DNA from: a virus
Lineage: Duplodnaviria; Heunggongvirae; Uroviricota; Caudoviricetes
Virus record (IMG/VR): IMGVR_UViG_3300045988_024106
Reading direction: 5' to 3' (one strand)
DNA length: 44,656 nt
Every line of letters begins with the position of its first letter. The stretch's first letter is position 1. The notes below the pieces were generated by a model, which saw nothing but the letters and a program-made list of their open reading frames with translations, was not told the DNA's origin and did no database searches. This document shows positions 7,243-42,843 of the stretch, piece by piece. The position numbers and the translations under genes are program-made.

Positions 7243-7276
7243 TTTACAGACACCAACATAATAGGGTACCATTCGG
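7243..7276 (+). promoter_or_regulatory. Promoter/operator box (P-box) upstream of the mini-clamp gene
   Basis: tttacagacaccaacataatagggtaccattcgg; related to boxes at 9398, 42810, 18253(-), 20065(-); holds a TATAAT-like hexamer and an imperfect AATAG-N4-CTATT palindrome. Confidence 0.55.
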
Positions 7277-7299
7277 ATAACTTAAACAGGAGATGTAAA

Positions 7300-7821
7300 A
7301 TGGTTGCCACAGTAATTACTTTTCCCGCGTATGTAGGGGCGAAAATCTGCAGGGCTAAAAATGATGTACGCTACTATCTGAACGCTTTTTACATAGACCC
7401 GGAAGGATTGATAGTGTCTACGGACGGCCATAGATTGTTCTGCGACAATGTTAAGACAAACGTTGAGAATGGGGCTCTCATAGACATAAAAGGGAGAGAG
7501 CCTTCTAAATTTAACTACGCGGAAGTAGACCACGACAACGGCAGTGTATCTTTCTATGACGATAGTCGTGCGCTTATATGTACACTTCCGGTGGATGTTG
7601 TAGACGGAAAATTTCCTGACTGGCGACGTGTGGCGCACATCACGCCGGGGGCAGTTGATAGCATAGGATTTACCATGCCCTACTTGGCAGACGCGCACAA
7701 GATTTCTAAGGCATACAAAAATGAAATTGCTCGTTTCGATTTCCAGGACCAAACCAGAGGATGCAAAATATCGTTTTCAAACACTGCATTTATGGTGCTA
7801 ATGCCAGCGCGATTTAAATAA
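7300..7821 (+). CDS. Truncated beta-sliding-clamp (DnaN-like) protein, moron
   Basis: 173 aa; DVRYYLN...STDGHRL, VDGKFPDWRRV, IGFTMPYLAD and C-terminal MVLMPARFK match conserved E. coli DnaN domain II/III segments (from memory); RBS ACAGGAG; own promoter and terminator. Confidence 0.6.
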   Translation: MVATVITFPAYVGAKICRAKNDVRYYLNAFYIDPEGLIVSTDGHRLFCDNVKTNVENGALIDIKGREPSKFNYAEVDHDNGSVSFYDDSRALICTLPVDVVDGKFPDWRRVAHITPGAVDSIGFTMPYLADAHKISKAYKNEIARFDFQDQTRGCKISFSNTAFMVLMPARFK

Positions 7822-7827
7822 AACTAA

Positions 7828-7848
7828 GGCCCCTTAACGGGGCCTTTT
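7828..7848. terminator. Bidirectional rho-independent terminator
   Basis: ggcccc-ttaa(c)-ggggcc hairpin followed by TTTT; A-rich on the opposite side; between convergent CDS 7300..7821 (+) and 7850..8311 (-). Confidence 0.7.
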
Positions 7849-7849
7849 A

Positions 7850-8311: not shown

Positions 8312-9411
8312 TAATCCCCTTTCAGATAATCAGCAACACGTTTATCGAGTTCCGCCATCTGCTTAAGCGTGAGCGGATTCCCGAAACCATCTACAGATAT
8401 TACGCGAAACTCTTCCGGCGATATACCGCTGTTACGGAAAATCTTACCGCGAACTGGCCCTAATGCTTCATCCTGAAACCACGCCGGTTGTTGTTTAAGG
8501 AACTCGTAATAGGTGGTGTCTGCACTTACCTGAGTACCGCCGTCCGCACCCTTAGCCGCGCGTTTTGCGCCTTTATCGAGGAAGTCGAACTCAGAACTGA
8601 TTACAGGCGCGGTGGTGCTTCGGCAATTAGGATGCGCGGGTGGCATCGGCCCTTTACCAATTTCCCACGTCATTCCGTCTCTGGCCCTGCAAATCGTGCT
8701 GGTGCGGCTGTCCAGCGTTGACACCCACTCGTATTTCTCGATGATGTCGTCGTTCCGGCGATACGTCTCGTTACGGGCTTCATTGGATACGTGAGACAGC
8801 GCGGTGCGGATTACGGTAGCCGCGTTACGTTCAGAGATGTCAGCCAGTCCGCCAGCGCCTACGACATTCTTAACAATCTGTCGTGTTGTCTGACCTTGTA
8901 CGAACCCCATCTTAACGCCCGTTACAAGACGGGCGACTTCGGTTTCACCCCAGCCATCCATCAGCTTAGTGAAGTCGACAGGCTTGTCGCTCAGTGAGAG
9001 CGGTTGAAACTCAGCAGCGGCCCACACCTGTTCAGCGGTGGGTGTAACGAATTCTGCGTTAACGTTGGTGGCTAGTGTCTTTACGTTCCACTCAGCCTCA
9101 TACGCTGCCAGCTCCTTAAGGTCTTCTGTCAGCTTTGTTCGCCAGTCGCCTGTAAGTCCGGTTAGTGCTTCTTCAATGTCGCGTAACAGTTTATTCAGTC
9201 GCGCAGTGCTACGCCCGTCGTCACCGAATAGCAGCACCTGCCGTTTGATTTCATCTCGCATTTCCTGGATAAACGGAGCGAGGTCTTTCACTTCACCGGA
9301 TGCGGTGCGTTGCAGCCAAATCTGGTGGCTGATTAGGGATGTAAGTAAGCTCATAGGCCCTCCTGTGGTATCGCCAGTGTAACGCATAAAAATAATATTT
9401 GCAGACACCAA
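8311..9411 (-). CDS. Head morphogenesis protein (Mu F / SPP1 gp7-like minor head protein)
   Basis: 366 aa; STLDSRTSTICRARDGMTW resembles the Phage_Mu_F family; located just downstream of the portal gene. Confidence 0.7.
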   Translation of the reverse strand: MVSANIIFMRYTGDTTGGPMSLLTSLISHQIWLQRTASGEVKDLAPFIQEMRDEIKRQVLLFGDDGRSTARLNKLLRDIEEALTGLTGDWRTKLTEDLKELAAYEAEWNVKTLATNVNAEFVTPTAEQVWAAAEFQPLSLSDKPVDFTKLMDGWGETEVARLVTGVKMGFVQGQTTRQIVKNVVGAGGLADISERNAATVIRTALSHVSNEARNETYRRNDDIIEKYEWVSTLDSRTSTICRARDGMTWEIGKGPMPPAHPNCRSTTAPVISSEFDFLDKGAKRAAKGADGGTQVSADTTYYEFLKQQPAWFQDEALGPVRGKIFRNSGISPEEFRVISVDGFGNPLTLKQMAELDKRVADYLKGD

Positions 9412-9431
9412 TATAATAGGGTACTATTCAG
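9398..9431 (+). promoter_or_regulatory. Promoter/operator box (P-box)
   Basis: tttgcagacaccaatataatagggtactattcag; exact TATAAT at 9412-9417 and palindrome AATAG-ggta-CTATT at 9415-9428. Confidence 0.6.
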
Positions 9432-15178: not shown

Positions 15179-15207
15179 AATATAATAGGGTCGATGGTAA
15201 TAGTCAA
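15179..15207 (-). promoter_or_regulatory. Sigma70-like promoter (minus strand), TTGACT-17-TATATT
   Basis: Minus-strand -35 TTGACT (15202-15207) and -10 TATATT (15179-15184) with 17-nt spacer; just downstream of a strong terminator. Confidence 0.5.
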
Positions 15208-15228
15208 CTAGTCATTACAGAAAATAGA

Positions 15229-18252: not shown

Positions 18253-18285
18253 TGAATAGTAGCCTATTCTATCTTAGTGTGCAAG
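18253..18285 (-). promoter_or_regulatory. Promoter/operator box (P-box), minus orientation
   Basis: Reverse complement cttgcacactaagatagaataggctactattca matches the plus-strand P-boxes; palindrome AATAG-tagc-CTATT. Confidence 0.55.
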
Positions 18286-19852: not shown

Positions 19853-20043
19853 TTCACCCCTTTGAATTTAAAATTGTTGCCGATGAGTGTTAAATTATCT
19901 CGTAAGGCGTAACCATGTTTCTTTCGTACAAGACCCCATACGTCTACAGCGATACTATATTCATCTTCGTCCTGGGTAACTATCACGTACTGTCCGCAGC
20001 GTTTCGTTTTCACCAACTGACCCTTCTTAAACATAACCCTCAC
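19849..20043 (-). CDS. Hypothetical protein (first gene of the leftward early unit)
   Basis: 64-aa ORF; RBS GAGGAG; downstream of P-box 20065-20098. Confidence 0.45.
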   Translation of the reverse strand: MRVMFKKGQLVKTKRCGQYVIVTQDEDEYSIAVDVWGLVRKKHGYALRDNLTLIGNNFKFKGVK

Positions 20044-20064
20044 TCCTCTGTCTCGTTTCGATAA

Positions 20065-20098
20065 GTGAATAGTATCCTATTATGTTGGGGTGTGCAAG
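20065..20098 (-). promoter_or_regulatory. Promoter/operator box (P-box), leftward early promoter
   Basis: Reverse complement cttgcacaccccaacataataggatactattcac; palindrome AATAG-tatc-CTATT. Confidence 0.6.
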
Positions 20099-20164
20099 AG
20101 ATTAGTTACGTTGCCGTTGTGATTCTTTCGTGTAATAGGATAGCGAGCGAAACGAAACGAACGT

Positions 20165-20196
20165 GGTGCCGAAGGCACCAAGAGTGAGTGAGTGAG
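20165..20196. other. GC hairpin (ggtgcc-gaa-ggcacc) followed by (GAGT)n microrepeat
   Basis: Hairpin 20165-20179 and gagtgagtgagtgag 20182-20196; on the minus strand the hairpin is followed by a moderately T-rich tail. Confidence 0.4.
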
Positions 20197-20250
20197 CTTG
20201 CGGTTCTGACCTACGGCAAATCAGTAACTTATATACTTAGGCGGGAATTA

Positions 20251-20395
20251 CAATAGACTATGGCCCTTCCGAATGCGCCAGCGAGACTCACTCCACACGT
20301 CGAGACGTGCTCGTTTCGCCTGCCGCGCACCGCGGTCGCTTGTTCATACTTCACAAGCTCAGGTCGAGCTTAGCATATTTCTTAGTAAAAGTCAA
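20251..20395. repeat. Element R2: ~145-bp structured intergenic element, paralogous to R1 (7035-7177); candidate sRNA/regulatory element
   Basis: Alignment by eye to R1; nearly identical core 20330-20378; the upstream half has a different hairpin (cacgtc-ga-gacgtg) at the position of R1's ggac-ttac-gtcc. Confidence 0.6.
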
Positions 20396-20442
20396 TACCT
20401 GTAGCATCTTTTGTATCTTAGTAACTTTGTGTGTTGTTTCGG

Positions 20443-20471
20443 TTGCTTTTACATTCCCGCTATCCTATACT
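20443..20471 (+). promoter_or_regulatory. Sigma70-like rightward early promoter (TTGCTT-17-TATACT)
   Basis: -35 at 20443-20448, -10 at 20466-20471; ~30 nt upstream of the first plus-strand gene. Confidence 0.4.
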
Positions 20472-20502
20472 TGGCTTCACCGAACAAACAGGAGATATAG
20501 AA

Positions 20503-20685
20503 ATGCAACATTACATGACACAGAATGAAGTAGCTGAACGTATCGGGGTGACACGGCAGACAATTAATAACTGGTTGCGCAGTGGTAAATTCCCGGATTG
20601 TTGTATTAAGGTTATGGGTAGACGTTTACCGGGAACATTTGACCGTAATAAAGTTGAAGCGTGGATTAAGGAGAACGTGAAATGA
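20503..20685 (+). CDS. AlpA/excisionase-family HTH DNA-binding protein
   Basis: 60 aa from ATG at 20503 (RBS AGGAG); MTQNEVAERIGVTRQTINNWLRSGKFP is a typical HTH_17/AlpA-like helix-turn-helix. Confidence 0.6.
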   Translation: MQHYMTQNEVAERIGVTRQTINNWLRSGKFPDCCIKVMGRRLPGTFDRNKVEAWIKENVK

Positions 20686-20894
20686 TTGGGCGTATGGGTT
20701 GTTACTTTGAAAACGGTAAAGTTAAATACTGGTTTAAGTTTGCGTCGGAAATTACTGACAGCGGATTCTATGCGGAAATATGTAAGCCTAATCATTTGTC
20801 AGAACCTACGCGCATTATTAAGATGCCAATCGAGGCGTTGAGTAAATGCCGTTTCTATGATTCTGCGTACGCGTGGTTTGCGGGCGATAAGTAA
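20682..20894 (+). CDS. Hypothetical protein
   Basis: 70-aa ORF overlapping the upstream stop. Confidence 0.4.
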   Translation: MIGRMGCYFENGKVKYWFKFASEITDSGFYAEICKPNHLSEPTRIIKMPIEALSKCRFYDSAYAWFAGDK

Positions 20895-20962
20895 AAGAAA
20901 CCCCAACGCTATAACGTCGGGGTTAAAGTACAAATCATCAAAGTAAGCATAAGGATTATACA

Positions 20963-21091
20963 ATGACAAAGTTAATAGTTCCACAGCTACGCCGCCAGAA
21001 ACACGGCGCTGACTTCTTCGCACCGGTAAAGATGAACCGCGCAATGCGCCGTATGCAGGAAGCCTTAGAACGTGCGGAGAAAAAGAAATGA
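20963..21091 (+). CDS. Hypothetical small basic protein (42 aa)
   Basis: Manual translation MTKLIVPQLRRQKHGADFFAP...; RBS AAGGA; stop overlaps the primase-helicase start. Confidence 0.3.
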   Translation: MTKLIVPQLRRQKHGADFFAPVKMNRAMRRMQEALERAEKKK

Positions 21092-23349: not shown

Positions 23350-23359
23350 GTAAAAAGAA

Positions 23360-23376
23360 AGGGGCGTTAAGCCCCT
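23360..23376. terminator. Hairpin terminator overlapping the XRE gene stop (aggggc-gttaa-gcccct)
   Basis: GC hairpin between convergent primase-helicase (+) and XRE (-) genes; T-rich tail on the minus strand. Confidence 0.5.
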
Positions 23377-23582
23377 TCACCGAACGCCAGCCACTTGGCG
23401 TCTACTTCCAGCACTTCTGCCAGTTTAAACAGCGTCGCCGGGCGGACATCCTGAGTTACACCGAGTGCCAGTTGGTTAATCGCGCCCTGGGAAACCCCAG
23501 CCAGAACAGCCAGACGGCGCTGGGAGATGCCGAGTTCTTTACGGCGTTGTTCTACACGGATGCCTAGTTCAGATGGTTGCAT
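23367..23582 (-). CDS. XRE-family (Cro/CI-type) HTH transcriptional regulator
   Basis: 71 aa; ...RRKELGISQRRLAVLAGVSQGAINQLALG is a canonical HTH_3 motif; sole minus-strand gene in the plus block; RBS AAGGAG. Confidence 0.75.
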   Translation of the reverse strand: MQPSELGIRVEQRRKELGISQRRLAVLAGVSQGAINQLALGVTQDVRPATLFKLAEVLEVDAKWLAFGEGA

Positions 23583-23610
23583 GTCAATTACTCCTTAGTC
23601 AGTTGATATG

Positions 23611-23677
23611 TGAATAGTACCATATTAATTATTTTAGGAAAGCCCATTGACATCATGAATAGTTAGCTATTATAGTT
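23611..23677. promoter_or_regulatory. Divergent control region with two operator palindromes and a TTGACA -35
   Basis: tgaatagtaccatatta (23611-23627) and tgaatagttagctattatagtt (23656-23677); TTGACA at 23647-23652; lies between the XRE gene and gene 23709. Confidence 0.55.
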
Positions 23678-23708
23678 AGCACATACCAAACGAGAGGAGA
23701 GAAACAAA

Positions 23709-24412: not shown

Positions 24413-24425
24413 CTACTTAACTTAT

Positions 24426-24449
24426 GGTGCCCTCGCTATTGAGGGCACC
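24426..24449. other. Stable hairpin (9-bp stem ggtgccctc / gagggcacc) without a U-tract
   Basis: Perfect inverted repeat 14 nt after the stop of CDS 23885..24412; not a canonical terminator. Confidence 0.4.
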
Positions 24450-26481: not shown

Positions 26482-26714
26482 TTCGTAAAATGTTCAGAGT
26501 AATTGGCGGTTTTGTGGCGTTTTTAAGCTATCACTTTATGATGTTGCCGGTTTATTCTTTGCTTTTTCCATTAATGGCTTATATTGCGGTTAAGTATAAA
26601 ACTGTAGACCTGGAAGACTTAATGGAAGTTAATGAGATAAAGTTTGTTCAGAATTTGGAGTGGCCTTTCGAATACGTACTGATAGTTGAGAAAATAACTG
26701 GCTGGAAGGGTTGA
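26478..26714 (+). CDS. Small membrane protein
   Basis: 78 aa from ATG at 26478 (RBS AGGAGG); hydrophobic segments FVAFLSYHFMMLPVYSLLFPLMAYIAV. Confidence 0.4.
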   Translation: MIRKMFRVIGGFVAFLSYHFMMLPVYSLLFPLMAYIAVKYKTVDLEDLMEVNEIKFVQNLEWPFEYVLIVEKITGWKG

Positions 26715-26739
26715 CACCTGAATAGTTAGCTATTATAGT
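26710..26739 (+). promoter_or_regulatory. Promoter with operator palindrome (TTGACA + tgaatagttagctattatagtt)
   Basis: TTGACA at 26710-26715; the 22-nt block 26718-26739 is identical to 23656-23677; followed by a short hairpin (26751-26766) and the DUF2815 gene. Confidence 0.55.
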
Positions 26740-26793
26740 TCTAATCACTGGCCGGGCAGCTTCCCGGAGTAAACTTAAAAGCGAGAAATCACG

Positions 26794-27420
26794 ATGGGAC
26801 TGAAATTAAATCTGCGTAAAGTAAACACTGCATGGGTTAACGTATTCGAACGCGAAAAAGACCGTGAAAACGATGATGGCTCAATCACTAAAGGCCAGTA
26901 CAGCGCGACTATCATCCTGCCGTCCGACCATGCTCAAATCGACGCGCTATACGACACTGTTTACGCTGTAGTTGAAGAAGCGTTAGGTGCAGCCGCCGCT
27001 GAGAAATGGATGAAGTCCAACTACGGCGAAGGCAAGCACATGGATAAATGCGCGATTAAAGACATTGCCGAGCGCGACAATCCGTTTGAAGACTTCCCAG
27101 AAGGCTTCTACTTCAAAGCGAAGGCACAGAAACAGCCGCTGATTGTAACCTCTAAAAAAGGTGAGACTCAGGTAGAGCAGGACTTCAACGTAGACGGCGA
27201 ACAGATTGAAGGCGAACAGGTTTACAGCGGCTGCGTCGCTAACGTAAGCGTTGAAATCTGGTTCAGCCAGAAATATAAAGTCCTCGGCGTTAACCTGCTG
27301 GCGATTAAATACGTTGGTGAAGGTAAAGCGTTCGGTGGTTCTAAAGTAGTCGCAAGCGTCAATGACCTGGAAGACGACGAAGAAGATGGAGCACCACGCC
27401 GTGAACGCCGCCGTCGCTAA
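26794..27420 (+). CDS. DUF2815-family protein (putative ssDNA-binding replication factor)
   Basis: 208 aa; conserved position between the DUF2800 exonuclease and PolA; basic C-terminus APRRERRRR. Confidence 0.55.
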   Translation: MGLKLNLRKVNTAWVNVFEREKDRENDDGSITKGQYSATIILPSDHAQIDALYDTVYAVVEEALGAAAAEKWMKSNYGEGKHMDKCAIKDIAERDNPFEDFPEGFYFKAKAQKQPLIVTSKKGETQVEQDFNVDGEQIEGEQVYSGCVANVSVEIWFSQKYKVLGVNLLAIKYVGEGKAFGGSKVVASVNDLEDDEEDGAPRRERRRR

Positions 27421-27439
27421 TATCTGAATCAATTTAACT

Positions 27440-27462
27440 AAGGCCCTTCATTGGGCCTTTTT
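27440..27462 (+). terminator. Rho-independent terminator/attenuator before the DNA polymerase gene
   Basis: aaggccc-ttcatt-gggcctt hairpin followed by TTTTT. Confidence 0.6.
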
Positions 27463-27479
27463 ACTAAGGGTCGAAAATA

Positions 27480-29681
27480 ATGAGTTACCTGTTCTTAGAC
27501 TTTGAAACATTCTCCGAAGCCGATTTAAAGAAAGTCGGCTCCTACGCTTACGCCGAACACCCAACTACTGAAGTGCTTATCTGCACGTATGCTTTTGACG
27601 ACGAGCCTGTTCGGGTATGGGATTGCACCGACGGCAGCGACATGCCTGGCGATTTGCACCGCGCGTTACGCCGTCTGGTTAAACCGAACAGCCGCATCAA
27701 GATGGTGTGGCACAACGGCTCAATGTTCGACCGCCTCATCATGAAACACTGCTGGGGTTTTGATATTCCGGTAAGCAACACCATTGATACGATGATTTGG
27801 GCGTTCCGCCACGCGCTGCCGGGTTCACTTGATGCATTGTGCGAAGTGCTGGGTGTATCCGCGGACAATGCAAAAGATAAACGCGGCAAGGCGCTGATTC
27901 AGCGTTTTTCTAAACCGACGCCGAAGAACTACAAAATCCGTCGCTACACCGCCGAAACACACCCGGGCGAGTGGGCGCTGTTCATCAAGTACGCCGTGAG
28001 CGACATCACTGCGATGCGTGAAGTCTCCCATAAGCTGCCGAGGTGGGGTAACTCCGAGTTTGAGGACCGTGTACTGGAACTGGACCAGTTAATTAACGAC
28101 CGCGGGTTTAAGGTTGACGTCGCACTGGCGGAAGCCGCGATTGAGGCCGTGGAGAAACACAAGGCACAGTTACAGGAAGAAGCCCAACGCAAATACGGCG
28201 GCTCGCTTACTGGTAAAGACTTCCTGCCAATTCTACGCGAACTGGCTCCTGCGCACCGTATTCATAACGCACAGAAGTCTACGCTTAACGACCTGCTGGC
28301 GGACGATGATTTACCTGACGACGCCCGCGCGATTATAGAAATGCGCCTCGGGGCCGCATCCACCGCATCAACGAAATATAACCCGCTGTTGTTAGGCCGC
28401 TCTTCGGACGACCGCCGTCGAGGGTGTTTACAGTATGGCGGGGCAAAACGTACTCTGCGATGGGCGGGTAAAGGCTTCCAGCCGCAGAACCTGGCGCGCG
28501 GGTACTATCACGATGATGAACTGGATAAAGGCATTTCAGCGTTACTTAAGGGCCGCGCGCACCGCCGTTTTGATGTCGCTAAATTAACGGCATCGACGGT
28601 GCGTAGCTGCATCATACCGGAAGCAGGACATAAGTTTGTTGTTGCCGATTATTCTAACGTCGAAGGTCGCGGTTTAGCGTGGCTGGCCGGTGAAGAAACC
28701 GCGCTCGATACGTTCCGCGCTGGCCTTGATATTTACTGCGTAACCGCGGGTAAGATGTTCGGCATGGACCCAGATGATATTAAGAAAAACTTCAAGGAAA
28801 TCAGACAGATAGGCAAGGCTTGCGAACTGGGCCTCGGCTATGAGGGGGGTGTCGGAGCGTTCGTTACGTTCGCTAAAAACTTAGGTCTTGACCTTATTGA
28901 GATGGCAAAAACAATGGACGGGACTTTCCCCGACCACATCTGGGCTGCTACCGCACGAGGGTATGAGTGGGCGCGTATTCAGGAAGCCAAGCGACCGCCA
29001 CATCCCGGTGAAAAGGATGACCGACCATCGTATATTCTTGATAAGAAAGTGTGGCGCACATGTGACGCTATCAAGCGTATGTGGCGTGAGTCTCACCCTG
29101 AAACAGTAGCGTTCTGGCGAGACCTTAAAGATGGAATTTTAGCCGCTGTTCGCAATCCTGGTCGTGAATTTTGGGCAGGAGCACACTTGCGCAAGAATGG
29201 TGAAAGGGCTATCCGCATATGGCGTACTGTTGAATTTGATTCGTCCGGTAGGAAGGTTCCTGGTTGGTGGTTGTGTATGGAGTTGCCGTCGGGTCGTATC
29301 CTCTCGTATCCGGGGATCGGCGTTAGCGTGACAAAGGAAACAGACGAAGACGGACGGGTAAACACGAATGTGCGAATCAAGTACCAAGGCGAAAACCAGT
29401 TAACCCGCCAATGGACTACCCTGTACACACACGGTGGCAAAGCCTGCGAAAACATTGTCCAGGCGCTGTGCCGTGATTTACTCGCGTATGCGATGATTAA
29501 TGTTGAGGGTGGCGGGTATCCAATCGTGCTTTCGGTACACGATGAACTGGTATGTGAAACTCCAGACACCCCCGAGTATACGGTGGCTGAACTGGAAAAA
29601 TTAATGTGTTCGCTGCCTGAGTGGGCCGAGGGGTTCCCTCTTGTAGCGGAAGGTCAGGAGTTAAAACGTTATGCTAAGTAA
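27480..29681 (+). CDS. Family A DNA polymerase (PolA-like with 3'-5' exonuclease domain)
   Basis: 733 aa; N-terminal exonuclease motif LFLDFETFS, large polymerase domain; downstream of DUF2800/DUF2815. Confidence 0.75.
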   Translation: MSYLFLDFETFSEADLKKVGSYAYAEHPTTEVLICTYAFDDEPVRVWDCTDGSDMPGDLHRALRRLVKPNSRIKMVWHNGSMFDRLIMKHCWGFDIPVSNTIDTMIWAFRHALPGSLDALCEVLGVSADNAKDKRGKALIQRFSKPTPKNYKIRRYTAETHPGEWALFIKYAVSDITAMREVSHKLPRWGNSEFEDRVLELDQLINDRGFKVDVALAEAAIEAVEKHKAQLQEEAQRKYGGSLTGKDFLPILRELAPAHRIHNAQKSTLNDLLADDDLPDDARAIIEMRLGAASTASTKYNPLLLGRSSDDRRRGCLQYGGAKRTLRWAGKGFQPQNLARGYYHDDELDKGISALLKGRAHRRFDVAKLTASTVRSCIIPEAGHKFVVADYSNVEGRGLAWLAGEETALDTFRAGLDIYCVTAGKMFGMDPDDIKKNFKEIRQIGKACELGLGYEGGVGAFVTFAKNLGLDLIEMAKTMDGTFPDHIWAATARGYEWARIQEAKRPPHPGEKDDRPSYILDKKVWRTCDAIKRMWRESHPETVAFWRDLKDGILAAVRNPGREFWAGAHLRKNGERAIRIWRTVEFDSSGRKVPGWWLCMELPSGRILSYPGIGVSVTKETDEDGRVNTNVRIKYQGENQLTRQWTTLYTHGGKACENIVQALCRDLLAYAMINVEGGGYPIVLSVHDELVCETPDTPEYTVAELEKLMCSLPEWAEGFPLVAEGQELKRYAK

Positions 29682-29802
29682 ACTGATTATCGCGGTACTG
29701 GCAGGATTTGCCGCCGGTGTCTACTGTCACGAGGGTCAATACGGCATGATTGTCGCCGTGTTAGGCATGTTCATCGCAATTTATCTGTGGGTGCTGGAAT
29801 GA
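29671..29802 (+). CDS. Small hydrophobic peptide (43 aa)
   Basis: Manual translation MLSKLIIAVLAGFAAGVYCHEGQYGMIVAVLGMFIAIYLWVLE; overlaps the PolA stop. Confidence 0.3.
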   Translation: MLSKLIIAVLAGFAAGVYCHEGQYGMIVAVLGMFIAIYLWVLE

Positions 29803-29888
29803 AAATCTACTGGTTCTACGAAGAAGACTGTCGAATCTGTCCGCGCTGCGGGGTTGAGCATACAAAACGAGAGGGGTGCGTATTATGA
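29799..29888 (+). CDS. Small CxxC zinc-ribbon-like peptide (29 aa)
   Basis: Manual translation MKIYWFYEEDCRICPRCGVEHTKREGCVL; ATGA overlaps at both ends. Confidence 0.3.
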   Translation: MKIYWFYEEDCRICPRCGVEHTKREGCVL

Positions 29889-30076
29889 AAGAAGAATGTT
29901 TTAGCAACACCAAAGCGTTAGTAGATATGCCGGAGTGGGAATTTATCATGGTAATGGGCGATGGGTTCTTTAGCGATGCTTGCACCGGGTGTACGCACAA
30001 AGGTGTTTACTATTCAGAACACGACATCTATCAAGCGTACTTCCTGCGAAACCCAGATGCGGAGCCGTTGTTATGA
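29885..30076 (+). CDS. Hypothetical protein
   Basis: 63 aa from ATG at 29885 (MKEECFSNTK...). Confidence 0.4.
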   Translation: MKEECFSNTKALVDMPEWEFIMVMGDGFFSDACTGCTHKGVYYSEHDIYQAYFLRNPDAEPLL

Positions 30077-30225
30077 CAATGTTTGTATTTTGGACGATAG
30101 TAACCATGCTCGCACTGTTACTCGGCGCTGGAATAGCTGCGATGTTCTGTTATGGCCTGTTCTTTAAGTTTGTCGGTGTTGCCGTTCTCGGTGGAGCTTT
30201 CCTTACTTGGATTCTGCGGTCGTGA
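30073..30225 (+). CDS. Small membrane protein (50 aa)
   Basis: MTMFVFWTIVTMLALLLGAGIAAMFCYGLFFKFVGVAVLGGAFLTWILRS; two hydrophobic helices. Confidence 0.35.
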   Translation: MTMFVFWTIVTMLALLLGAGIAAMFCYGLFFKFVGVAVLGGAFLTWILRS

Positions 30226-30506
30226 CTAAAGAGGGCCGCGTACAGAAATACGCAAAAGAGAGGTTCGAGGCCCTGGGCGGCCTCGTTCGTAAACTTTCCT
30301 ATGAGGGGCGCTCCGGCGCTCCCGACCTGCTGGTAATTCTCCCCGGGGGCATCGTCTGGTTCGTCGAGGTTAAGAAAGATGAAAACACGAAGCCGGACCC
30401 CCACCAGTTACGCGAGCACGAGCGGATGCGTAAACGCGGTGCGAATGTTTTTGTCGTCGGTTCGTACAAACAGGTTGACGACCTAATAGCGAACTATTAT
30501 AGTTAG
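30207..30506 (+). CDS. VRR-NUC domain nuclease
   Basis: 99 aa; GAPDLLVILPGGIVWFVEVKK carries the PD-(D/E)XK-like D...E.K core typical of VRR-NUC; start uncertain (TTG at 30207 or GTG at 30222). Confidence 0.6.
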   Translation: MDSAVVTKEGRVQKYAKERFEALGGLVRKLSYEGRSGAPDLLVILPGGIVWFVEVKKDENTKPDPHQLREHERMRKRGANVFVVGSYKQVDDLIANYYS

Positions 30507-30536
30507 TCCCACACCAACAATATAAGGAATTGAGAA

Positions 30537-30728
30537 ATGAAACACGAATATGACCGCAAACCAGCACGCGGCATCGTACCAGGCGACATGATTTTCAACG
30601 TTAAGACCCGCCAGCCTGTTGCCGTTGATACGGTGTTCGTCGAGTCGAATGGTAAACTGGTTATCGAAGATGCGACCGGTAACGTTACGGCGTTCGGGCG
30701 TAAAGAGCTGGTGCTGGTGGCGAAATGA
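30537..30728 (+). CDS. Hypothetical protein
   Basis: 63-aa ORF with RBS AAGGA. Confidence 0.4.
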   Translation: MKHEYDRKPARGIVPGDMIFNVKTRQPVAVDTVFVESNGKLVIEDATGNVTAFGRKELVLVAK

Positions 30729-31648
30729 ACTATTACAATGAGTGGGATAAAGGCGCAGCCGCGTGGCTGCGTGAATTAATAAAACAGGGTCACATACCTT
30801 TTGGAGTTGTAGATGAAAGAAGCATTACAGAAGTTAAGCCAGAAGACCTCGACGGGTTCACCCAGTGTCATTTTTTCGCTGGTATTGGCGGCTGGCCTCT
30901 CGCGCTCAGACTTGCGGGAGTTTCGGAAAATACGCCTCTCTGGACGGGAAGCCCGCCTTGCCAACCGTTTAGCGCGGCAGGAAAGCAACTCGGACATTTC
31001 GACCCGAGACACCTCGCGCCGGTATTCCTTGACCTCATCAGCGAGTGCCGCCCTCCAGTCCTCTTTGGGGAACAGGTTGCACCAGCAATTGCAAAATCGT
31101 GGATGTGCGATTTACAAACTCACCTGGAAGGAGAAGACTACGCCGTCGGGTTTGCCGTACTCCCAGCTTGTGGCGTCGGCGCACCGCATAAAAGAGAGCG
31201 ACTCTTCTTTGGTGCGTACCAACTGGCCGACACCGACAGCGAACGATTACAAAGGGAGCGGAGAGACAGTGATTCGCAAGGACGGGAAGGACAGAACATT
31301 CGACAGGCTGGACTACTCAACGGAGCAGGGACTGAAAGCGGCATGGGGGACGCCGACGGTTCAGAATTCGCGTCACGGCAGCTACAGCGAGGCGGAAACA
31401 AAAAGAGACCCGAACAATCTGCACAATCAATGCTACCTCGTGGTGGCAATCCGAATCGCAGCTTCTGGTCGGATGCTGACTGGCTCGGATGCCGTGACGG
31501 AAAATTTAGGCCAGTTGAACCCGGCACATTCCCGCTGGCTAATGGGATACCCGCCAGAGTGGGACGATTGCGCGGTTACGGCAATGCTATCGTCCCGCAA
31601 GTAGCTGCAGAATTTATAAAGGCGTTTATGGGGGCCATAAATGAGTAA
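30725..31648 (+). CDS. DNA (cytosine-5)-methyltransferase with two compensating frameshifts (+1 near 31219-31220, -1 near 31572-31576)
   Basis: Frame A holds motifs I (FFAGIGG), IV (PPCQPFSAAGK), VI-like (GEQV), VIII (APHKRERLFF) and X (GYGNAIVPQV); the middle segment with NWPTPTANDYKG and LNPAHSRWLMGYPPEW is in the frame of ORF 30813..31604. Confidence 0.6.
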   Translation: MNYYNEWDKGAAAWLRELIKQGHIPFGVVDERSITEVKPEDLDGFTQCHFFAGIGGWPLALRLAGVSENTPLWTGSPPCQPFSAAGKQLGHFDPRHLAPVFLDLISECRPPVLFGEQVAPAIAKSWMCDLQTHLEGEDYAVGFAVLPACGVGAPHKRERLFFGAYQLADTDSERLQRERRDSDSQGREGQNIRQAGLLNGAGTESGMGDADGSEFASRQLQRGGNKKRPEQSAQSMLPRGGNPNRSFWSDADWLGCRDGKFRPVEPGTFPLANGIPARVGRLRGYGNAIVPQVAAEFIKAFMGAINE

Positions 31649-33065
31649 GTTTCAAAGGCGCGAGTACCAGAAGCTCATGACCTCGTTCATGTTGCAACAC
31701 CATCGCTGCAACATATGGGCAAGCATGGGCGCTGGGAAGACTGGCAGCGTACTGTGGGCATTAAACCGACTGTTCCGCAACGGCCAACTTAATGATGACG
31801 ACCGCGTGTTAATACTCGCCCCGCTGCGCGTTGCGTCCGGCACATGGCCCGCAGAACAAGAGAAATGGCGATTCCCGTGTCTGAGTGTCGTAGATGCGAC
31901 CGGTTCAGAGAAGCGCCGTATCGCGGCGCTGGAGTCGGACGCTAACGTGGTATGCACAAACTACGAAGTTATCGAGTGGCTGATTGACTACTACGGCAAA
32001 GATGACTGGCCTTTTACCGTTATCGTTGCCGATGAAAGCACGAAGCTTAAATCATTCCGCAGCCGTTCAGGTGGTAGTAAGAGGGCGAAGGCGCTCAGTA
32101 AGGTGGCATTTGGAAAGGTTAAGCGTTTTATTAACCTGACGGGAACGCCGTCACCGAACGGCCTCAAAGACTTGTGGGGGCAGAACTGGTTTATCGACGC
32201 GGGCGAGCGCCTGGGTTCTTCCTACACGGCATTCACTGACCGCTGGTTTAACTCGGTACAGAAAGGTAAGTCGGCGATGGCGCGTGAATACCATGCACGA
32301 CCAGGTGCTGATAATGAAATCCACCAGAAGATGAAGGACATTAGCCTCACGATTGACGCCGCCGAGTGGTTCGGTTGTGAAGCTCCGATTATCGTACCGG
32401 TTGAAATCGACCTGCCGAAGAAAGCACGTCAGGCGTACATAGATATGGAGGAGAAGTTATTCGCGGAACTGGAGAGTGGGGAAGTTGAAGCGGCTAACGC
32501 AGCAGCGAAGACGTCTAAGTGTTTGCAGATTGCTTCCGGTGCCGTGTATGTGACTGGCGACGACGGAGAAGCAACGAAAGACTGGGAGAAAGTGCACGAT
32601 ACGAAACTGGATGCGCTCGAGTCCATTGTGGGGGAACTACAGGGTGCGCCGTTGCTGGTAGCATATCAGTTTAAGCACGAACTGGAGCGCATCCTTAAGC
32701 GATTCCCCCAAGCACAGGCGTTTGCAAAAGGTGCTAAGGGTAATAAGCAGATGGAAGCATGGAACCGTGGTGAAATCGAAATCTTATGCGTGCACCCCGC
32801 GTCAGCTGGGCATGGTTTGAATTTACAGGACGGCGGACATCATCTGGCGTTCATCTCACAAGGCTGGAACCTTGAGCACTATTTGCAGGTCGTTGAGCGT
32901 ATAGGCCCGGTCCGCCAGAAACAGGCAGGCCACGAGCGCCCGGTGTTCCTTTACCACATCGTTGCTAAGGACACGCTGGACGAGGTTGTTGCCGCGCGTA
33001 CGGACGAGAAAAAATCTGTACAGGAAGAGTTGCTTAATTACATGAAGAGACGAGGTAAGAAATGA
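31641..33065 (+). CDS. SNF2-family (DEAD/DEAH-like) helicase
   Basis: 474 aa; Walker A GAGKTG, DExx box VIVADEST, C-terminal helicase domain. Confidence 0.7.
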   Translation: MSKFQRREYQKLMTSFMLQHHRCNIWASMGAGKTGSVLWALNRLFRNGQLNDDDRVLILAPLRVASGTWPAEQEKWRFPCLSVVDATGSEKRRIAALESDANVVCTNYEVIEWLIDYYGKDDWPFTVIVADESTKLKSFRSRSGGSKRAKALSKVAFGKVKRFINLTGTPSPNGLKDLWGQNWFIDAGERLGSSYTAFTDRWFNSVQKGKSAMAREYHARPGADNEIHQKMKDISLTIDAAEWFGCEAPIIVPVEIDLPKKARQAYIDMEEKLFAELESGEVEAANAAAKTSKCLQIASGAVYVTGDDGEATKDWEKVHDTKLDALESIVGELQGAPLLVAYQFKHELERILKRFPQAQAFAKGAKGNKQMEAWNRGEIEILCVHPASAGHGLNLQDGGHHLAFISQGWNLEHYLQVVERIGPVRQKQAGHERPVFLYHIVAKDTLDEVVAARTDEKKSVQEELLNYMKRRGKK

Positions 33066-39655: not shown

Positions 39656-41943
39656 TATTTGAACCCCGGCGCATTTCTTGTGGCCTTTCGGGCCTTGCTA
39701 ATCTTACTGTTGCTGTTCTGCAAAGAGGCAGCCACTTGCTCTTCGATGATGATACGCAAACGGCCTTCATCATCTTGTTCAGTGGATACGTTGCCAATCT
39801 GACTCGATGTGTTATTTACGATGGTAACATTAGATGGGCCAGAAGAAGACCCGTTTTGCCCCATAATTTCTTTCATCTGCTGCGCGGTGCGCACACGCGA
39901 TGCGCCAGCGGGCATGATAACTTCGGGTTTACCACGTTCAGCGATAGTAGAAGCCTGCCCCGCGGATAACTGACCGCCCTGTTCACGCGCGGACCTGATA
40001 GCGGAAATCTGCGCCATACCCGCCCCAACGGCTGCGGCAGCGGCTACAGGGGCAAGGAACGGACCAACAATAGGGATAGCCGCCGTAGACTTGTACGCCT
40101 CAATAGCTGCGGTGTACGTGGCTATAGTGGCCTGTACGATAGCGAATGCTTTATACGCACCAGAAGCCTCGCCCAACGCAGACCCGATGTTTGAAGCCAT
40201 GTTACCAAAGGCGGTTGCTGTTGCGTCGGCACGTTTCGTGGCGTACTGCTCGTTGATGGCGTTAAGCGCGGCCTGATACTGCGTCTCACTAATCAGACCC
40301 TGCTCACGGTACTTATCCGCCACCGCCAGTTTCTGCTGTTCCTGGATGTCGAGAAGCTCAAGCTCAGTAGCGTTCTGGCCCATAATCTGAGCCATGAAGT
40401 CGTCACCTTTCTGCTGCTTTTCCTGGGCTTCTTTCTGGCGTTTATCCAGTTCATCTTGGCGTTTTTGCCCTGCTTCAAGGACGATAGCTGTTTTAGCTTG
40501 TTCGTATTCTTTCAGAGACAACGCGCCCTGTCTGTAGAACTCTTTTGCCTTAGCCAGTTTCTGCTGTTCCTGAGCGTCAATAGCCTTTAACTCGTCGTTG
40601 TTCTGACGGGCTAAAGTGTCGAGGTAATCCTGCGCCTGTTTACGCAGTTGCTCCGCTTTCTTAGCGGCGGCTTTCGCGTCTTTGTCGTCGGCGTTTCCGG
40701 TGCCGCCAGTTCCGCCCTTTTTATTAACAAGGCTGGCTAAGTCAATTTCTTGCTTCTTGCGCTCGTCATACTGCTTGCGCTGTTCCTCAATTTCTTTCTT
40801 ACGCTGCTTAGACCTGTTGGTGATGGCCTGTGATTCGGCCTCTGCGCGTTTTATGCTGGCGGCGTATGCGGCGTCAGCCTCTGCGGTCAGGTTTTTAAAT
40901 GTGAGTGCTGCCGTTTTGCTCGGGTCAAACACGTCAGCGAGGGTCTGTCCTAACGCTACGGCATAATCGTCAATGCGCTGGAACCACGCAATAACCTCAT
41001 GGAATGTCTGCTGGATGTCAGGCAACCACTCACGGATAGCGTCCGGTATAGTACCCAGCGAGTCGGACATGTCCGCGGATTTGTTCTCGGTGTCATATGC
41101 CAGGTCGTTCAAAGCGTCAGAAATAAACTTGAACGACTCATTGAACAGTGTCACCCAATCCTGGAGTGTGGCGGCTATCTCATTAGACGCGATGGCATCA
41201 GTAAGCGCCGTGATAGCATCTTCCGCCCTCGCAGCTTGCTCACCTACTGCGTCGCCGAAACCTGATTGCGCCACCGCAAGTACAAGGCCGTCAAAGGAGT
41301 CCGCCAGGCTCGACAACTGACCATCTAATGTCTTAGAGCGCGTCTCCATTGCCCCGGCGAAATCCGTGTTGCCGATGTTCAGAAGGTATTTCTGAATCTC
41401 TTCGGAGTTCTTTTTAACAGTAGTCGTTACGCCGCGGAACGTGAACGAAACCGTATCCGCCTGTTGCGACGACTTGATACCAAACTCTTTCAGTCGCTCA
41501 AACTCAAAGGTACTGGCGTCCGCCACGGCCTCAATCATCTGATTAAGGTCTTTACCCATCGCAGCGGCGGTGTTGCCGTAGGAGATTAACGCCTCTTTGC
41601 TGGGATTCAGGCCGAGAGCTACAAGTTTAGTGAAGCCCTCAACAGCCTGGTTAAGGCCGTATGGGGTCTCTTTTGCGAACTGTTGCAGGACGCTGAAAGC
41701 CTTAGCGGCATTCTCGGCACTCCCGGTCATCGTGATGAGGCCGGAGTTCAGCTTGTCGAAGTTTCGCTGGGAGTCCACCAGCGCACTGAACACCTGTTTG
41801 GCGGTTTCCAGACTGACGACGGCGGCTGCGGCAGCCCCCGCCGCCTTAGTGAGCCCGTTCAGTTGTGATGTGGTTTTATCGACGCCGGTCGATGATACTC
41901 GTACTATCAAGCTAGCGGTATCAGCCATGATTTCTACCTTCAA
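39655..41943 (-). CDS. Tail tape measure protein
   Basis: 762 aa; long Ala/Gln/Glu/Lys-rich predicted helical protein; downstream of the G/T chaperone pair. Confidence 0.8.
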   Translation of the reverse strand: MKVEIMADTASLIVRVSSTGVDKTTSQLNGLTKAAGAAAAAVVSLETAKQVFSALVDSQRNFDKLNSGLITMTGSAENAAKAFSVLQQFAKETPYGLNQAVEGFTKLVALGLNPSKEALISYGNTAAAMGKDLNQMIEAVADASTFEFERLKEFGIKSSQQADTVSFTFRGVTTTVKKNSEEIQKYLLNIGNTDFAGAMETRSKTLDGQLSSLADSFDGLVLAVAQSGFGDAVGEQAARAEDAITALTDAIASNEIAATLQDWVTLFNESFKFISDALNDLAYDTENKSADMSDSLGTIPDAIREWLPDIQQTFHEVIAWFQRIDDYAVALGQTLADVFDPSKTAALTFKNLTAEADAAYAASIKRAEAESQAITNRSKQRKKEIEEQRKQYDERKKQEIDLASLVNKKGGTGGTGNADDKDAKAAAKKAEQLRKQAQDYLDTLARQNNDELKAIDAQEQQKLAKAKEFYRQGALSLKEYEQAKTAIVLEAGQKRQDELDKRQKEAQEKQQKGDDFMAQIMGQNATELELLDIQEQQKLAVADKYREQGLISETQYQAALNAINEQYATKRADATATAFGNMASNIGSALGEASGAYKAFAIVQATIATYTAAIEAYKSTAAIPIVGPFLAPVAAAAAVGAGMAQISAIRSAREQGGQLSAGQASTIAERGKPEVIMPAGASRVRTAQQMKEIMGQNGSSSGPSNVTIVNNTSSQIGNVSTEQDDEGRLRIIIEEQVAASLQNSNSKISKARKATRNAPGFK

Positions 41944-42187
41944 AGATTGCTTCTAAGCCCATGATAATGTCTATCTCGAACAGACTAAGCTGCTTTTGCG
42001 TAACATCGAGATAGGCTTTCAGGTCTTGCCACGTAACGGATTCTCTTGCAAACAATACTACAGCGTCCTCGCGCACGTGTCGCGTAAACTTAATGTCGCA
42101 ATACGTCTCAAAGGTGGATATAAAAAGGGGTGGACATTCTGGCCCACCCCGTCGCGCTGCACGTTTTTTCTTATCGATTACACCCAT
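41921..42187 (-). CDS. Tail assembly chaperone T-extension (likely made as a G-T fusion by -1 frameshift)
   Basis: ORF in the -1 frame relative to G; manual translation shows this frame open from before the G stop (42286-42288) through to 41921. Confidence 0.5.
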   Translation of the reverse strand: MGVIDKKKRAARRGGPECPPLFISTFETYCDIKFTRHVREDAVVLFARESVTWQDLKAYLDVTQKQLSLFEIDIIMGLEAIFEGRNHG

Positions 42188-42285
42188 CGCGATAAGCGCC
42201 TGTTCGTGTCCGTCAGCTATAGAATCAAACTCTCTGATTTTATGTTTATCAACGAACTCGTAGGTGGCGAACCTGTACAGCGCGT

Positions 42286-42702
42286 CTACTTTTCCTGTAA
42301 TGCTTTACGCTCAGCGTTATGGAACGCGGCCACCTGTGTGCCTAATGCCTTGAACTGGTCGAGCAATTTGTTAAACGCTTCCTTAGAGAAAGGCTCATCA
42401 AAGCTCCAGCCGTTTACGACTTCCGCCGCGAGTTGTCGGTTGAGGTCTTCCGCCAGTTCGTTAACCGCCAGGTTATATTCAGTGTAGTCACCAGATTCTT
42501 TGGCGGCTTTTTCCAGTTCTTCAAAACGCGCCAAGCCGCGGCGATACGCGATAATGAAAGCACGCCCCGCTTTAACGGCGGCATCCGCATCCGGATTTAC
42601 AACGTTAAGCCACTCACCGGAGTCTTCGCCATTCGGCAGCAGAATCGGCATCTTCTTGCCTACCAGTGCTTTCTCTTCGAAATAGAAATCAGAAAGTTTC
42701 AT
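42286..42702 (-). CDS. Tail assembly chaperone (gpG-like)
   Basis: 138-aa acidic protein directly upstream of T and the tape measure; RBS AAGGA; G-T architecture. Confidence 0.6.
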   Translation of the reverse strand: MKLSDFYFEEKALVGKKMPILLPNGEDSGEWLNVVNPDADAAVKAGRAFIIAYRRGLARFEELEKAAKESGDYTEYNLAVNELAEDLNRQLAAEVVNGWSFDEPFSKEAFNKLLDQFKALGTQVAAFHNAERKALQEK

Positions 42703-42809
42703 TCTTTAATCCTTTGGTTAAGAGGTTACGGGTTAATGGTAAATGCGCCAGACGGGAACCACCCGCTTTTCGTGTGCGACACTAGGCGCAAAATTATTCT
42801 ATCACATTA

Positions 42810-42843
42810 CTTGCAGACCCCAATATAATAGGGTACTATTCAC
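42810..42843 (+). promoter_or_regulatory. Promoter/operator box (P-box) for the moron island
   Basis: cttgcagaccccaatataatagggtactattcac; TATAAT plus palindrome AATAG-ggta-CTATT; upstream of the Imm-like gene. Confidence 0.6.

Follow-up and report, generated by a model that had tools for sequence, protein, structure and literature searches.

A palindromic box at the promoters of the phage genome

The window analyzed here, a stretch of 44,656 nucleotides, is the complete genome of a virulent, Kagunavirus-like (Guernseyvirinae) siphophage of E. coli. Two candidate helix-turn-helix proteins are encoded in it, namely an XRE/HTH_3 protein of 71 aa resembling 434 Cro (23367..23582, minus strand) and an HTH_17 protein of 60 aa, also described as AlpA-like, with an excisionase/MerR-type winged helix (20503..20685, plus strand). 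Inspection of the gene content returned no RNA polymerase gene, all ORFs of at least 660 aa corresponding to primase-helicase, DNA polymerase A, tape measure, tail or tailspike proteins. Neither an integrase nor a second repressor is annotated in EcoPhCCP1, a phage of 96.7% identity, or in relatives, and lysogeny genes are not reported in the Golestan paper. Intrinsic terminators are abundant in the genome.

A genome-wide palindrome search located exact copies of AATAG-N4-CTATT at positions 9415, 18255, 20068, 23658, 26721, 30485 and 42827, seven occurrences where 0.03 would be expected, and 100 shuffled sequences contained at most one match each. Copies conserving nine of the ten half-site positions were found at 7260 (CCATT) and 23613 (AATAT), thus confirming the recurrent box described in the initial annotation, whose list of sites was correct but omitted those at 30475-30503 and 15199-15212. 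The consensus of about 34 bp proposed there was recovered as a 32-mer at 7244, 9399, 20066 (minus strand) and 42811 with 0-3 mismatches (0 matches expected), the copy at 18253 being more diverged, and the 22-mer TGAATAGTTAGCTATTATAGTT was indeed identical at 23655 and 26718, before gene 23709 and the DUF2815/PolA unit. The extended form of the box is (T/A)(G/T)AATAG-N4-CTATT(A/C)(T/A), in which the half-sites make up a 14-bp palindrome. Each of the 10 half-site positions carried 2 bits of information and the central ones 0.14-0.37 bits, in a set of sites chosen on this same core. Dyad symmetry, conserved half-sites and a variable centre over about 14-18 bp are the features of a Cro/cI-type operator. 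The distance from the box to a start codon with a Shine-Dalgarno sequence was 26-38 nt for all copies except the class-3 site described below, for which it was 53 nt.

The box lies within sigma-70-type promoters, with -35 and -10 hexamers 17±1 nt apart, and occupies three registers, covering the -10 in class 1 (about -19 to -6), the spacer in class 2 (-25 to -12) and the -35 in class 3 (-40 to -27), with centres near -12.5, -18.5 and -33.5 respectively. These spans replace the -10/+1 position originally assigned to it. Counted from the end of the -35, the box starts after 10 nt in class 1, 4-5 nt in class 2 and -5 nt in class 3, and its asymmetric flanks are inverted in orientation between class 1 and class 2. 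On register and flank orientation, the box is an element separable from the sigma-70 hexamers.

Class-1 promoters read straight from the sequence as TTGCAG/TTGCAC-N17-TACTAT. The TATAAT-like hexamer previously taken as their -10 is only 7 nt from the -35 in the TTGCAG-type promoters and therefore cannot have this role; at the proper 17-nt distance one finds TACTAT instead, which falls within the palindrome's right half. On the plus strand, the promoter at 9398..9431 combines TTGCAG (9399-9404), a 17-nt spacer and TACTAT (9422-9427) with an exact box at 9415-9428, spanning about -19 to -6, and an ATG at 9456. That at 42810..42843 (TTGCAG 42811-42816, exact box 42827-42840, TACTAT 42834-42839) drives an Imm-like gene (42855/42870..43061), an SbcD-like exonuclease and further downstream genes. 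The promoter at 7243..7276 carries TTTACA (7243-7248), TACCAT (7267-7272) and a degenerate box, AATAG-GGTA-CCATT (7260-7273, 9/10), ahead of a gene with ATG at 7300 (7300..7821) that matches clamp/RusA-like PHROGs. The plus-strand genes formerly called morons are mostly DNA-metabolism genes, together with the Imm-like gene. On the minus strand, the promoters at 18253..18285 (TTGCAC 18284-18279, TACTAT 18261-18256, exact box 18255-18268, ATG at 18224) and 20065..20098 (TTGCAC 20097-20092, TACTAT 20074-20069, exact box 20068-20081, ATG at 20034) show the same architecture.

The divergent region 23583-23708 holds two boxes. One, AATAT-GGTA-CTATT (23613-23626, 9/10), covers the -10 (TACTAT, 23619-23614) of the minus-strand XRE promoter (23611..23637), which has a poor -35 and leads to the ATG at 23582; the same single mismatch is present in all Kagunavirus-like loci. 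The other is exact (23658-23671) and occupies the spacer (-25 to -12) of the class-2 promoter at 23647..23677 on the plus strand (TTGACA 23647-23652, 18-nt spacer, TATAGT 23671-23676, ATG at 23709). Class-2 promoters, TTGACA/TTGACG-N17/18-TATAGT, match the sigma-70 consensus at 10-11 of 12 positions and include two further plus-strand members. The first, at 26710..26739 (TTGACA 26711-26716, 17-nt spacer, TATAGT 26734-26739, exact box 26721-26734), drives a DUF2815/Gp2.5-like SSB (26794..27420) and then DNA polymerase A. The second, one of the two omitted sites, lies at 30475..30503 (TTGACG 30475-30480, 17-nt spacer, TATAGT 30498-30503, exact box 30485-30498) with an ATG at 30537 and methylase and SNF2 helicase genes downstream.

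The other omitted site is the class-3 promoter at 15179..15212 on the minus strand (TTGACT 15207-15202, 17-nt spacer, TATATT 15184-15179; 10/12 against consensus), whose box, ACTAG-TTGA-CTATT (15212-15199, 9/10), is centred on the -35. With its ATG at 15145, this promoter heads the small-gene/terminase/portal block and extends the putative regulon to it. A possible class-3-like site, weakly assigned, occurs at 7169..7182 on the minus strand, where AATAG-TTGA-CTTTT (9/10) overlies TTGACT-N17-TAAGCT facing the spanin/scaffold/capsid block. Nearly all strong, host-type promoters of the genome, that of the packaging block included, carry the box, which, as the initial annotation had proposed, is a cis element common to early leftward genes, replication modules, plus-strand clusters of the late region and the XRE gene.

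Conservation of the box in related phages

The comparison covered about 35 related genomes in four clades, including Kagunavirus-like, Jerseyvirus-like, Tsm2 and SE1-like phages. A motif search of these relatives showed that the box is conserved where gene order is kept, with fixed half-sites and a variable central 4 bp and adjoining spacer. At one orthologous site, compared over about 31 distinct Kagunavirus-like sequences, there was no variation in TGAATAG or CTATTATA, the central 4 bp took at least six forms and the 4-5 nt from the -35 to the box varied freely. The box ranked first among palindromes in all Kagunavirus-like and Jerseyvirus-like loci examined, and Tsm2, a Serratia phage, has exact copies at promoters of classes 1 and 2.

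In the SE1-like clade, all copies changed in concert to ATTAG-N4-GTATT (three exact copies against 0.08 expected) within the same three promoter architectures, and the box is consistently asymmetric, with ATTAG on one side and AATAC on the other. SE1-like phages and Jerseyviruses both infect Salmonella, yet they carry different variants, each uniform within a genome. The concerted change favours a lineage-specific trans factor as the reader of the box and speaks against both sigma-70 and a host protein. Overall, the conservation pattern points to a putative phage-encoded, trans-acting binder that would occlude RNA polymerase.

Candidate binders

An operator for a dimeric HTH protein, as had been suggested, would fit the dyad symmetry, the variable centre and the overlap with core promoters. 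Either of the two HTH proteins had been named as the binder; our data favour the XRE protein, the only one of the two present in all four clades. It matched Pfam HTH_3 with an E value of 2e-12 (47 bits, cut-off 23) and 434 Cro, its best solved relative by sequence, in phmmer (E 5e-7). Its AF2 model showed five helices (pLDDT 84), the HTH_3 fold of Cro/cI-type regulators, and returned 2cro (434 Cro) as the top Foldseek match. Operators overlapping promoters, including the regulator's own, are likewise a Cro/cI-type trait, and the box of the XRE gene is imperfect in each clade. In two unrelated phage lineages, whose XRE homologues share 38-45% identity with this protein, repeated palindromes of the same 5-N4-5 design, TAAAG-N4-CTTTA and TGTAG-N4-CTACA, adjoin the gene.

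Several observations count against the XRE protein as the binder. Its recognition helix reads SQGAINQL in Kagunavirus, SQSLITHL in Jerseyvirus and SQGMLNHL in Tsm2, though the box is the same, while the SE1-like helix TQSAISHL is close to that of Jerseyvirus though the box differs; therefore, XRE and box show no clean covariation. The consistent asymmetry of the SE1-like box is unexpected for a homodimer, and repression of every promoter, the packaging one included, would leave unexplained how late genes come to be expressed. Moreover, between Kagunavirus and Jerseyvirus the HTH_17 protein is 80-84% identical, the XRE protein 51% and the primase-helicase 29%, and such conservation of HTH_17 would suit the reader of an invariant site.

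These identities, set beside an identical box, are an argument for binding by the HTH_17 protein, alone or with the XRE protein, as a global regulator, which we consider unlikely. The family is confined to Kagunavirus and Jerseyvirus; its predicted fold resembles the DNA-binding domain of RacA, which binds a 14-bp inverted repeat, as well as the BldC and MerR N-domains. Its expression probably peaks in the earliest class, which has only four genes, judging from the gene numbering of the K1B4 RNA-seq study, which gives time classes at gene level only. However, the family profile found no homologue, even at E<=10, in Tsm2, which has exact boxes, or in the SE1-like phages, which have the variant one. 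Variants with 65-70% identity and an altered recognition helix (VSTMTLNRW) coexist with an unchanged box, and direct rather than inverted repeats are the targets of most structural relatives (BldC, Xis, RdfS).

The AlpA-like designation recalls a further parallel, since class-2 boxes lie between -35 and -10 as do the ABE of AlpA and the QBE of lambda; the layout does not apply to boxes of class 1 and class 3. The HTH of P. aeruginosa AlpA (residues ~128-142) lies at the C terminus, and the ring at the RNA exit channel is built by a distinct N-terminal part. The HTH_17 protein lacks this part and consists of the winged helix only (60 aa), so that an antiterminator loading element of the Q/AlpA type was discarded.

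The asymmetry of the SE1-like variant, and that of the TG/AT flanks in Kagunavirus, gives a hint of a reader other than a simple homodimer. We thus assign a small probability to the box being a genome-wide tag read by an asymmetric or two-protein binder, such as the XRE protein with a clade-specific partner (HTH_17).

Alternative explanations and a proposed repressor circuit

It is quite improbable that there is no dedicated binder, the likeness reflecting descent of the promoters from one ancestral copy or a symmetric -10 that makes sigma-70 promoters bidirectional. Class-1 promoters are alike over the whole ~34 bp, including ACMCCAAYAT from the -35 to the box, as in duplicated cassettes; the opposite strand of the left half-site and its flank reads TATTAT (5/6 against the -10 consensus), and the intergenic regions of three class-1 boxes are divergent and face late genes. 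However, the putative opposite-strand promoters have no usable -35, and the box is found in either orientation and in three different registers. The left half-site of class-2 boxes falls in the spacer, whose bases sigma-70 does not read, yet it is invariant while the adjoining spacer bases vary. The distinct, genome-wide uniform variants of Jerseyviruses and SE1-like phages, which share a host genus, also speak against this reading.

A similarly low credence is given to a positive phage promoter tag, through which a phage factor would activate promoters, or protect them during host shut-off, instead of repressing them. The presence of the box on practically every strong promoter, that of the packaging block included, is odd for a pure repressor. 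Nevertheless, the three box centres overlap the contact surfaces of sigma-70, the classical positions for repression, and spacers of 17-18 nt are already optimal and need no MerR-type realignment. A MerR-type activator operator, with its dyad in a 19-20 nt spacer, was excluded on the same spacer lengths.

A site of a host transcription factor exploited by the phage is very unlikely: E. coli, Salmonella and Serratia phages do have the same box, but the variant of the SE1-like Salmonella phages differs from that of Jerseyviruses of the same host genus. We know of no enterobacterial regulator with this consensus, and the ARG box of ArgR, TGAAT-N4-ATTCA, differs in spacing.

The box sequences themselves are already known, as PHIRE retrieved the same 20-mers in the fBC-Eco01 paper, which listed them as PP1-PP7, including TGAATAGTACCCTATTATAT and TGAATAGTACCATATTAATT, under the label 'Phage RNAP promoter' with the consensus tgAATAGTa-ccTATTat-T; seven PHIRE promoters are also given in the Golestan paper, and both papers attribute the sequences to a phage RNA polymerase, which these phages lack, and omit the palindrome, the sigma-70 context and any regulator. 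Promoters for a phage-encoded RNA polymerase have a negligible probability and the label is wrong, since the genome has no such polymerase and each box sits inside a -35/-10 pair of sigma-70 type.

The operators of 434 and P22 are among the closest known systems. Those of 434 Cro/cI (ACAA-N6-TTGT) are also 14 bp long and dyad-symmetric with a variable centre, they overlap core promoters, among them a divergent pair next to the gene of the regulator itself, and 434 Cro has the same 71 aa as the XRE protein besides being its best sequence and fold match. Unlike the OR1-3/OL1-3 clusters of 434, single boxes are dispersed here over at least 10 promoters, and the half-site sequence differs. The 18-bp operators of P22 c2/Cro share the extended 7+4+7 geometry and have a non-conserved, uncontacted 4-bp centre; P22 c2 is among the XRE sequence and fold matches, with similarity below that of 434 Cro, and its genomic context differs in the same ways. 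A cI partner, an integrase and a lysogeny module are all missing, because the phage is virulent, and a bistable switch with a paired cI-type maintenance repressor was rejected. In the lack of an integrase and a second repressor, the boxes would work like a Cro operator set and not like a lambdoid immunity region.

Lambda Cro turns down PL and PR in lytic growth, and phi29 p4 represses the early promoters A2b and A2c. Both may be functional analogues, as early phage proteins that throttle their own host-RNAP early promoters, although the target promoters differ in number and distribution. The fold of p4 is unrelated, and it also activates a late promoter, of which we found no evidence here.

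With slightly better than even confidence, we regard the box as a putative operator for the phage-encoded XRE repressor, placed over the core of nearly all sigma-70-type promoters. Motif enrichment, register and conservation, together with the XRE fold, are observations, whereas binding, repression and timing are inferred. An XRE dimer would insert one recognition helix into each AATAG half-site, leaving the central 4 bp uncontacted. Since the box covers the -10, the spacer up to it, or the -35, the bound protein should keep RNA polymerase out and so lower promoter activity. The 9/10 boxes at the XRE and packaging-block promoters suggest that these would be repressed last. The outcome might be feedback, with early and replication transcription shut down by degrees.

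The motif is real, and the proposed control circuit is of an ordinary phage kind. If the box were instead the genome-wide tag of a more complex reader, its binder would set the timing of the entire infection programme, or label phage promoters as 'self' while the host is being shut off, in a virulent phage that has neither an RNA polymerase nor a sigma factor of its own.

Promoter architectures sharing a 14-bp palindrome

The window, 44,656 bp long, is a complete genome of a virulent siphophage that is Kagunavirus-like and belongs to the subfamily Guernseyvirinae; region 20000-32000 showed 96.7% identity to Escherichia phage EcoPhCCP1 and about 90% to many Kagunavirus genomes. Within it, the palindrome AATAG-N4-CTATT, a candidate operator hereafter called the box, occurred in seven exact copies (9415, 18255, 20068, 23658, 26721, 30485 and 42827) against 0.03 expected, confirming the recurrence at transcription-unit starts described in the initial annotation. 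The remaining two sites reported there, 7260 and 23613, do carry the box but with one mismatch (9/10), and two sites had been overlooked, at 30475-30503 and 15179-15212. A 32-mer consensus was matched at four sites with 0-3 mismatches, where none is expected, and the 22-mers at 23655 and 26718 were identical. All copies were intergenic, with a start codon and its Shine-Dalgarno sequence 26-38 nt downstream (53 nt for the site at 15199).

The box was found in three registers relative to sigma-70-type promoters. In class 1 (7243, 9398 and 42810 on the plus strand; 18285, 20098 and the XRE gene promoter at 23637 on the minus strand) the promoter reads TTGCAG or TTGCAC, 17 nt, TACTAT. The TATAAT-like hexamer noted earlier in these promoters cannot be their -10 element, since it starts only 7 nt after the -35; the correctly spaced TACTAT lies within the right half of the palindrome, which places the box at about -19 to -6. 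In class 2 (23647, 26711 and 30475, plus strand) the box takes up the spacer (-25 to -12) of TTGACA/TTGACG-17-18 nt-TATAGT promoters (10-11/12 matches). Class 3 is represented by the minus-strand promoter at 15207 (TTGACT-17 nt-TATATT), whose -35 lies at the centre of a 9/10 box, ACTAG-TTGA-CTATT; a weaker look-alike occurs at 7169-7182. The extended 18-mer TGAATAG-N4-CTATTAT has opposite orientations relative to the -35 in classes 1 and 2. Because of this inversion and of the three architectures, the palindrome is an element in its own right and not a by-product of sigma-70 hexamers. Opposite-strand late promoters were also searched within the class-1 boxes, and no acceptable -35 was found.

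Several other elements were observed in the window. AAACGAGR was enriched in the window, with 10 copies against 3.2 expected (9438, 18238(-), 20051(-), 23688 and elsewhere); in four cases the motif separates a box promoter from its Shine-Dalgarno sequence (e.g., ATCGAAACGAGAcagAGGAG), and the leader recurs after class-1 promoters of Jerseyvirus and Tsm2. It may represent a conserved leader or translation-initiation context. A second repeat of about 45 nt, TTCACAAGCTCAGGT(G/C)GAGCTTAGCATATTT...AAAAGTCAA, is present on the plus strand at 7132-7182, upstream of the class-1 box at 7243, and at 20350-20400, upstream of the gene for a 60-aa HTH_17 ("AlpA-like") protein (20503..20685, plus strand), and also in EcoPhCCP1; at both copies the promoter scan called TTCACA-N18-CATATT with a hairpin in the spacer and no box. 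The interval 20100-20440, about 340 bp between divergent early units, is devoid of a convincing ORF; within it lie a GGTGCCGAAGGCACC hairpin as well as a GAGTGAGTGAGTGAG run. On the minus strand at 15329-15230, immediately before the class-3 promoter, a box-less sigma-70-like TTGACA-N17-GATACT has a GC hairpin and T8 run some 60 nt downstream; the arrangement recurs in Jerseyvirus Ent1 (40770-40880), gave no Rfam match, as did the window as a whole, and may encode a short RNA or leader. Upstream of the small terminase gene, on the minus strand at 13110-13010, a terminator is followed by a box-less TGTACA-N18-TATAAT and a GC-rich hairpin (AGGCGCGTAGGGCGCGTCT); a CTATATAAT motif found here is also present at this location in SE1 and Tsm2. 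The region is a candidate late promoter or packaging-related site.

Conservation of the box in related phages

The comparison covered 74 IMG/VR loci around homologues of the XRE protein, together with the complete genomes of Ent1 (Jerseyvirus), SE1 and Tsm2, and was carried out by palindrome counting and PWM scans. The box is a real, strongly non-random and conserved feature. Among 5-Nx-5 palindromes it ranked first in nearly all loci of Kagunavirus-like and Jerseyvirus-like phages and shared the top count in the remainder; a locus, at most 20 kb long, had 2-6 copies. At orthologous promoters from about 30 distinct Kagunavirus sequences, neither TGAATAG nor CTATTATA varied; the central four bases of the box took at least six forms, and the 4-5 nt separating it from the -35 varied in sequence and length. 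Serratia phage Tsm2 showed exact boxes at one class-2 and one class-1 promoter, and two more copies at 9/10.

The canonical box was absent from the SE1-like clade, whose promoters carry ATTAG-N4-GTATT in the same three architectures, including a copy centred on TTGACT. SE1 itself has three exact copies of this variant against 0.08 expected; a repeat search of the phage recovered no promoter repeat, and the variant emerged only from the PWM scan. It is consistently asymmetric, in both orientations and in three promoter registers (SE1 3081, 7098 and 33576; loci L047-L050). Since this is a lineage-wide promoter change in phages sharing their host genus with Jerseyviruses, it points to a phage-encoded trans-acting factor as the reader of the box, rather than RNA polymerase itself or a host factor.

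The box set has been partly anticipated in print under a wrong label. The fBC-Eco01 paper gives the same 20-mers as seven "Phage RNAP promoters" with the consensus tgAATAGTa-ccTATTat-T, and the Golestan paper lists seven PHIRE promoters; neither mentions that they are palindromic, that they lie in a sigma-70 context or that a regulator might be involved. When full texts were searched with the box sequences, and with Jerseyvirus plus Cro or repressor, only the fBC-Eco01 paper came up. The phage polymerase label cannot be right, because the genome encodes no RNA polymerase; its ORFs of at least 660 aa correspond to primase-helicase, DNA polymerase A, tape measure, tail and tailspike proteins.

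Candidate binding proteins

The initial annotation had proposed either the XRE protein (71 aa; gene 23367..23582, minus strand) or the HTH_17 protein as the binder. The former matches Pfam HTH_3, and its best solved relative, both by sequence (E 5e-7) and by predicted fold, is 434 Cro, which is likewise 71 aa long and binds dyad operators of 14 bp, the length of the box. Only the XRE protein, between the two candidates, has homologues in all four clades. Its gene lies within a divergent promoter pair, each promoter bearing one box, and the copy at the XRE promoter itself departs from the perfect palindrome in Kagunavirus (AATAT), Jerseyvirus (ATTAC-TGTA-CTATT) and SE1. An imperfect own operator is the usual design of an autoregulated repressor. 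Repeated 14-bp palindromes of the 5-N4-5 type, TAAAG-N4-CTTTA and TGTAG-N4-CTACA, occur beside the gene in two unrelated lineages of phages whose XRE homologues are 38-45% identical (L053/L054/L056, about 1880-1940; L059, 9878, 10280 and 10309), with half-sites all ending in AG like those of the box; these are probably the operators of those phages. Among bacterial genomes, a scan for XRE relatives found distant homologues with no informative repeated operators, and one contig of probable Jerseyvirus origin. The XRE gene is unannotated in several public Kagunavirus records, with hit tables giving 'none' for RP180, K1ind1 and K1ind2, and the EcoPhCCP1 record carries instead a 96-nt ORF on the opposite strand (L001 10219-10314).

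Binding of the box by the HTH_17 protein appears improbable. This protein is 80-84% identical between Kagunavirus and Jerseyvirus, both of which have the box, whereas the XRE protein reaches 51% and the primase-helicase 29%; the SE1-like loci, which lack the canonical box, lack the HTH_17 protein too. However, a profile search found no match in Tsm2 or in SE1-like phages, and HTH_17 variants with an altered recognition helix occur alongside an unchanged box. The exact boxes of Tsm2 despite the missing HTH_17 protein, and the variant box kept in the same architectures by the SE1-like clade, overturned a ranking of HTH_17 above XRE. The HTH_17 protein is predicted to fold as a winged helix of the MerR/excisionase type, resembling RacA, BldC and Xis; it is too small and of the wrong fold for the box to be a Q/AlpA-like antitermination loading site. 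For the related phage K1B4, coarse RNA-seq places an HTH-domain gene among four early genes, and by gene order this is probably the HTH_17 gene. The XRE protein is thus the predicted binder, although the preference is not strong, because its recognition helix is unconserved among clades sharing the box and a homodimer would not readily account for an asymmetric SE1-type box.

A putative Cro-type regulon

The box set is best explained as operators for a regulon governed by a Cro-type repressor, here in a virulent phage. The box overlaps sigma-70-contacted DNA in every register, and a bound protein should therefore block polymerase, which would be occluded at box promoters. On the simplest reading, Cro-like feedback would shut down perfect-box promoters first, and imperfect ones later or only partially. 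Perfect boxes precede the leftward early genes, the replication/recombination modules and the plus-strand DNA-metabolism/Imm clusters inside the late region, while imperfect ones are found at the XRE promoter, at the promoter at 7243 and at that preceding the small-gene/terminase/portal block. The plus-strand genes described earlier as morons (7300-7821 and 42855-44646) proved to be mostly DNA-metabolism genes (a clamp/RusA-like PHROG match, an SbcD-like exonuclease, and kinase genes by homology to EcoPhCCP1) with an Imm-like superinfection-immunity gene, and look like early or middle genes placed antisense within the late block, with hairpin terminators on either side of each. Box-less candidate promoters were found at 13072(-) and 15329(-), and no late promoter class was definable in the window.

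Kagunavirus and Jerseyvirus, as members of the Guernseyvirinae, are among the phages most frequently isolated for E. coli and Salmonella therapy. The model is directly testable, with about ten defined sites and one 71-aa protein. Even if true, it would leave the general understanding of phage regulation unchanged; it would correct the published mis-annotation as phage RNA polymerase promoters, and the three clade-level variants of the box would constitute a natural specificity-swap experiment. A single small Cro-like protein acting through one 14-bp operator would then explain the control of most promoters in these genomes.
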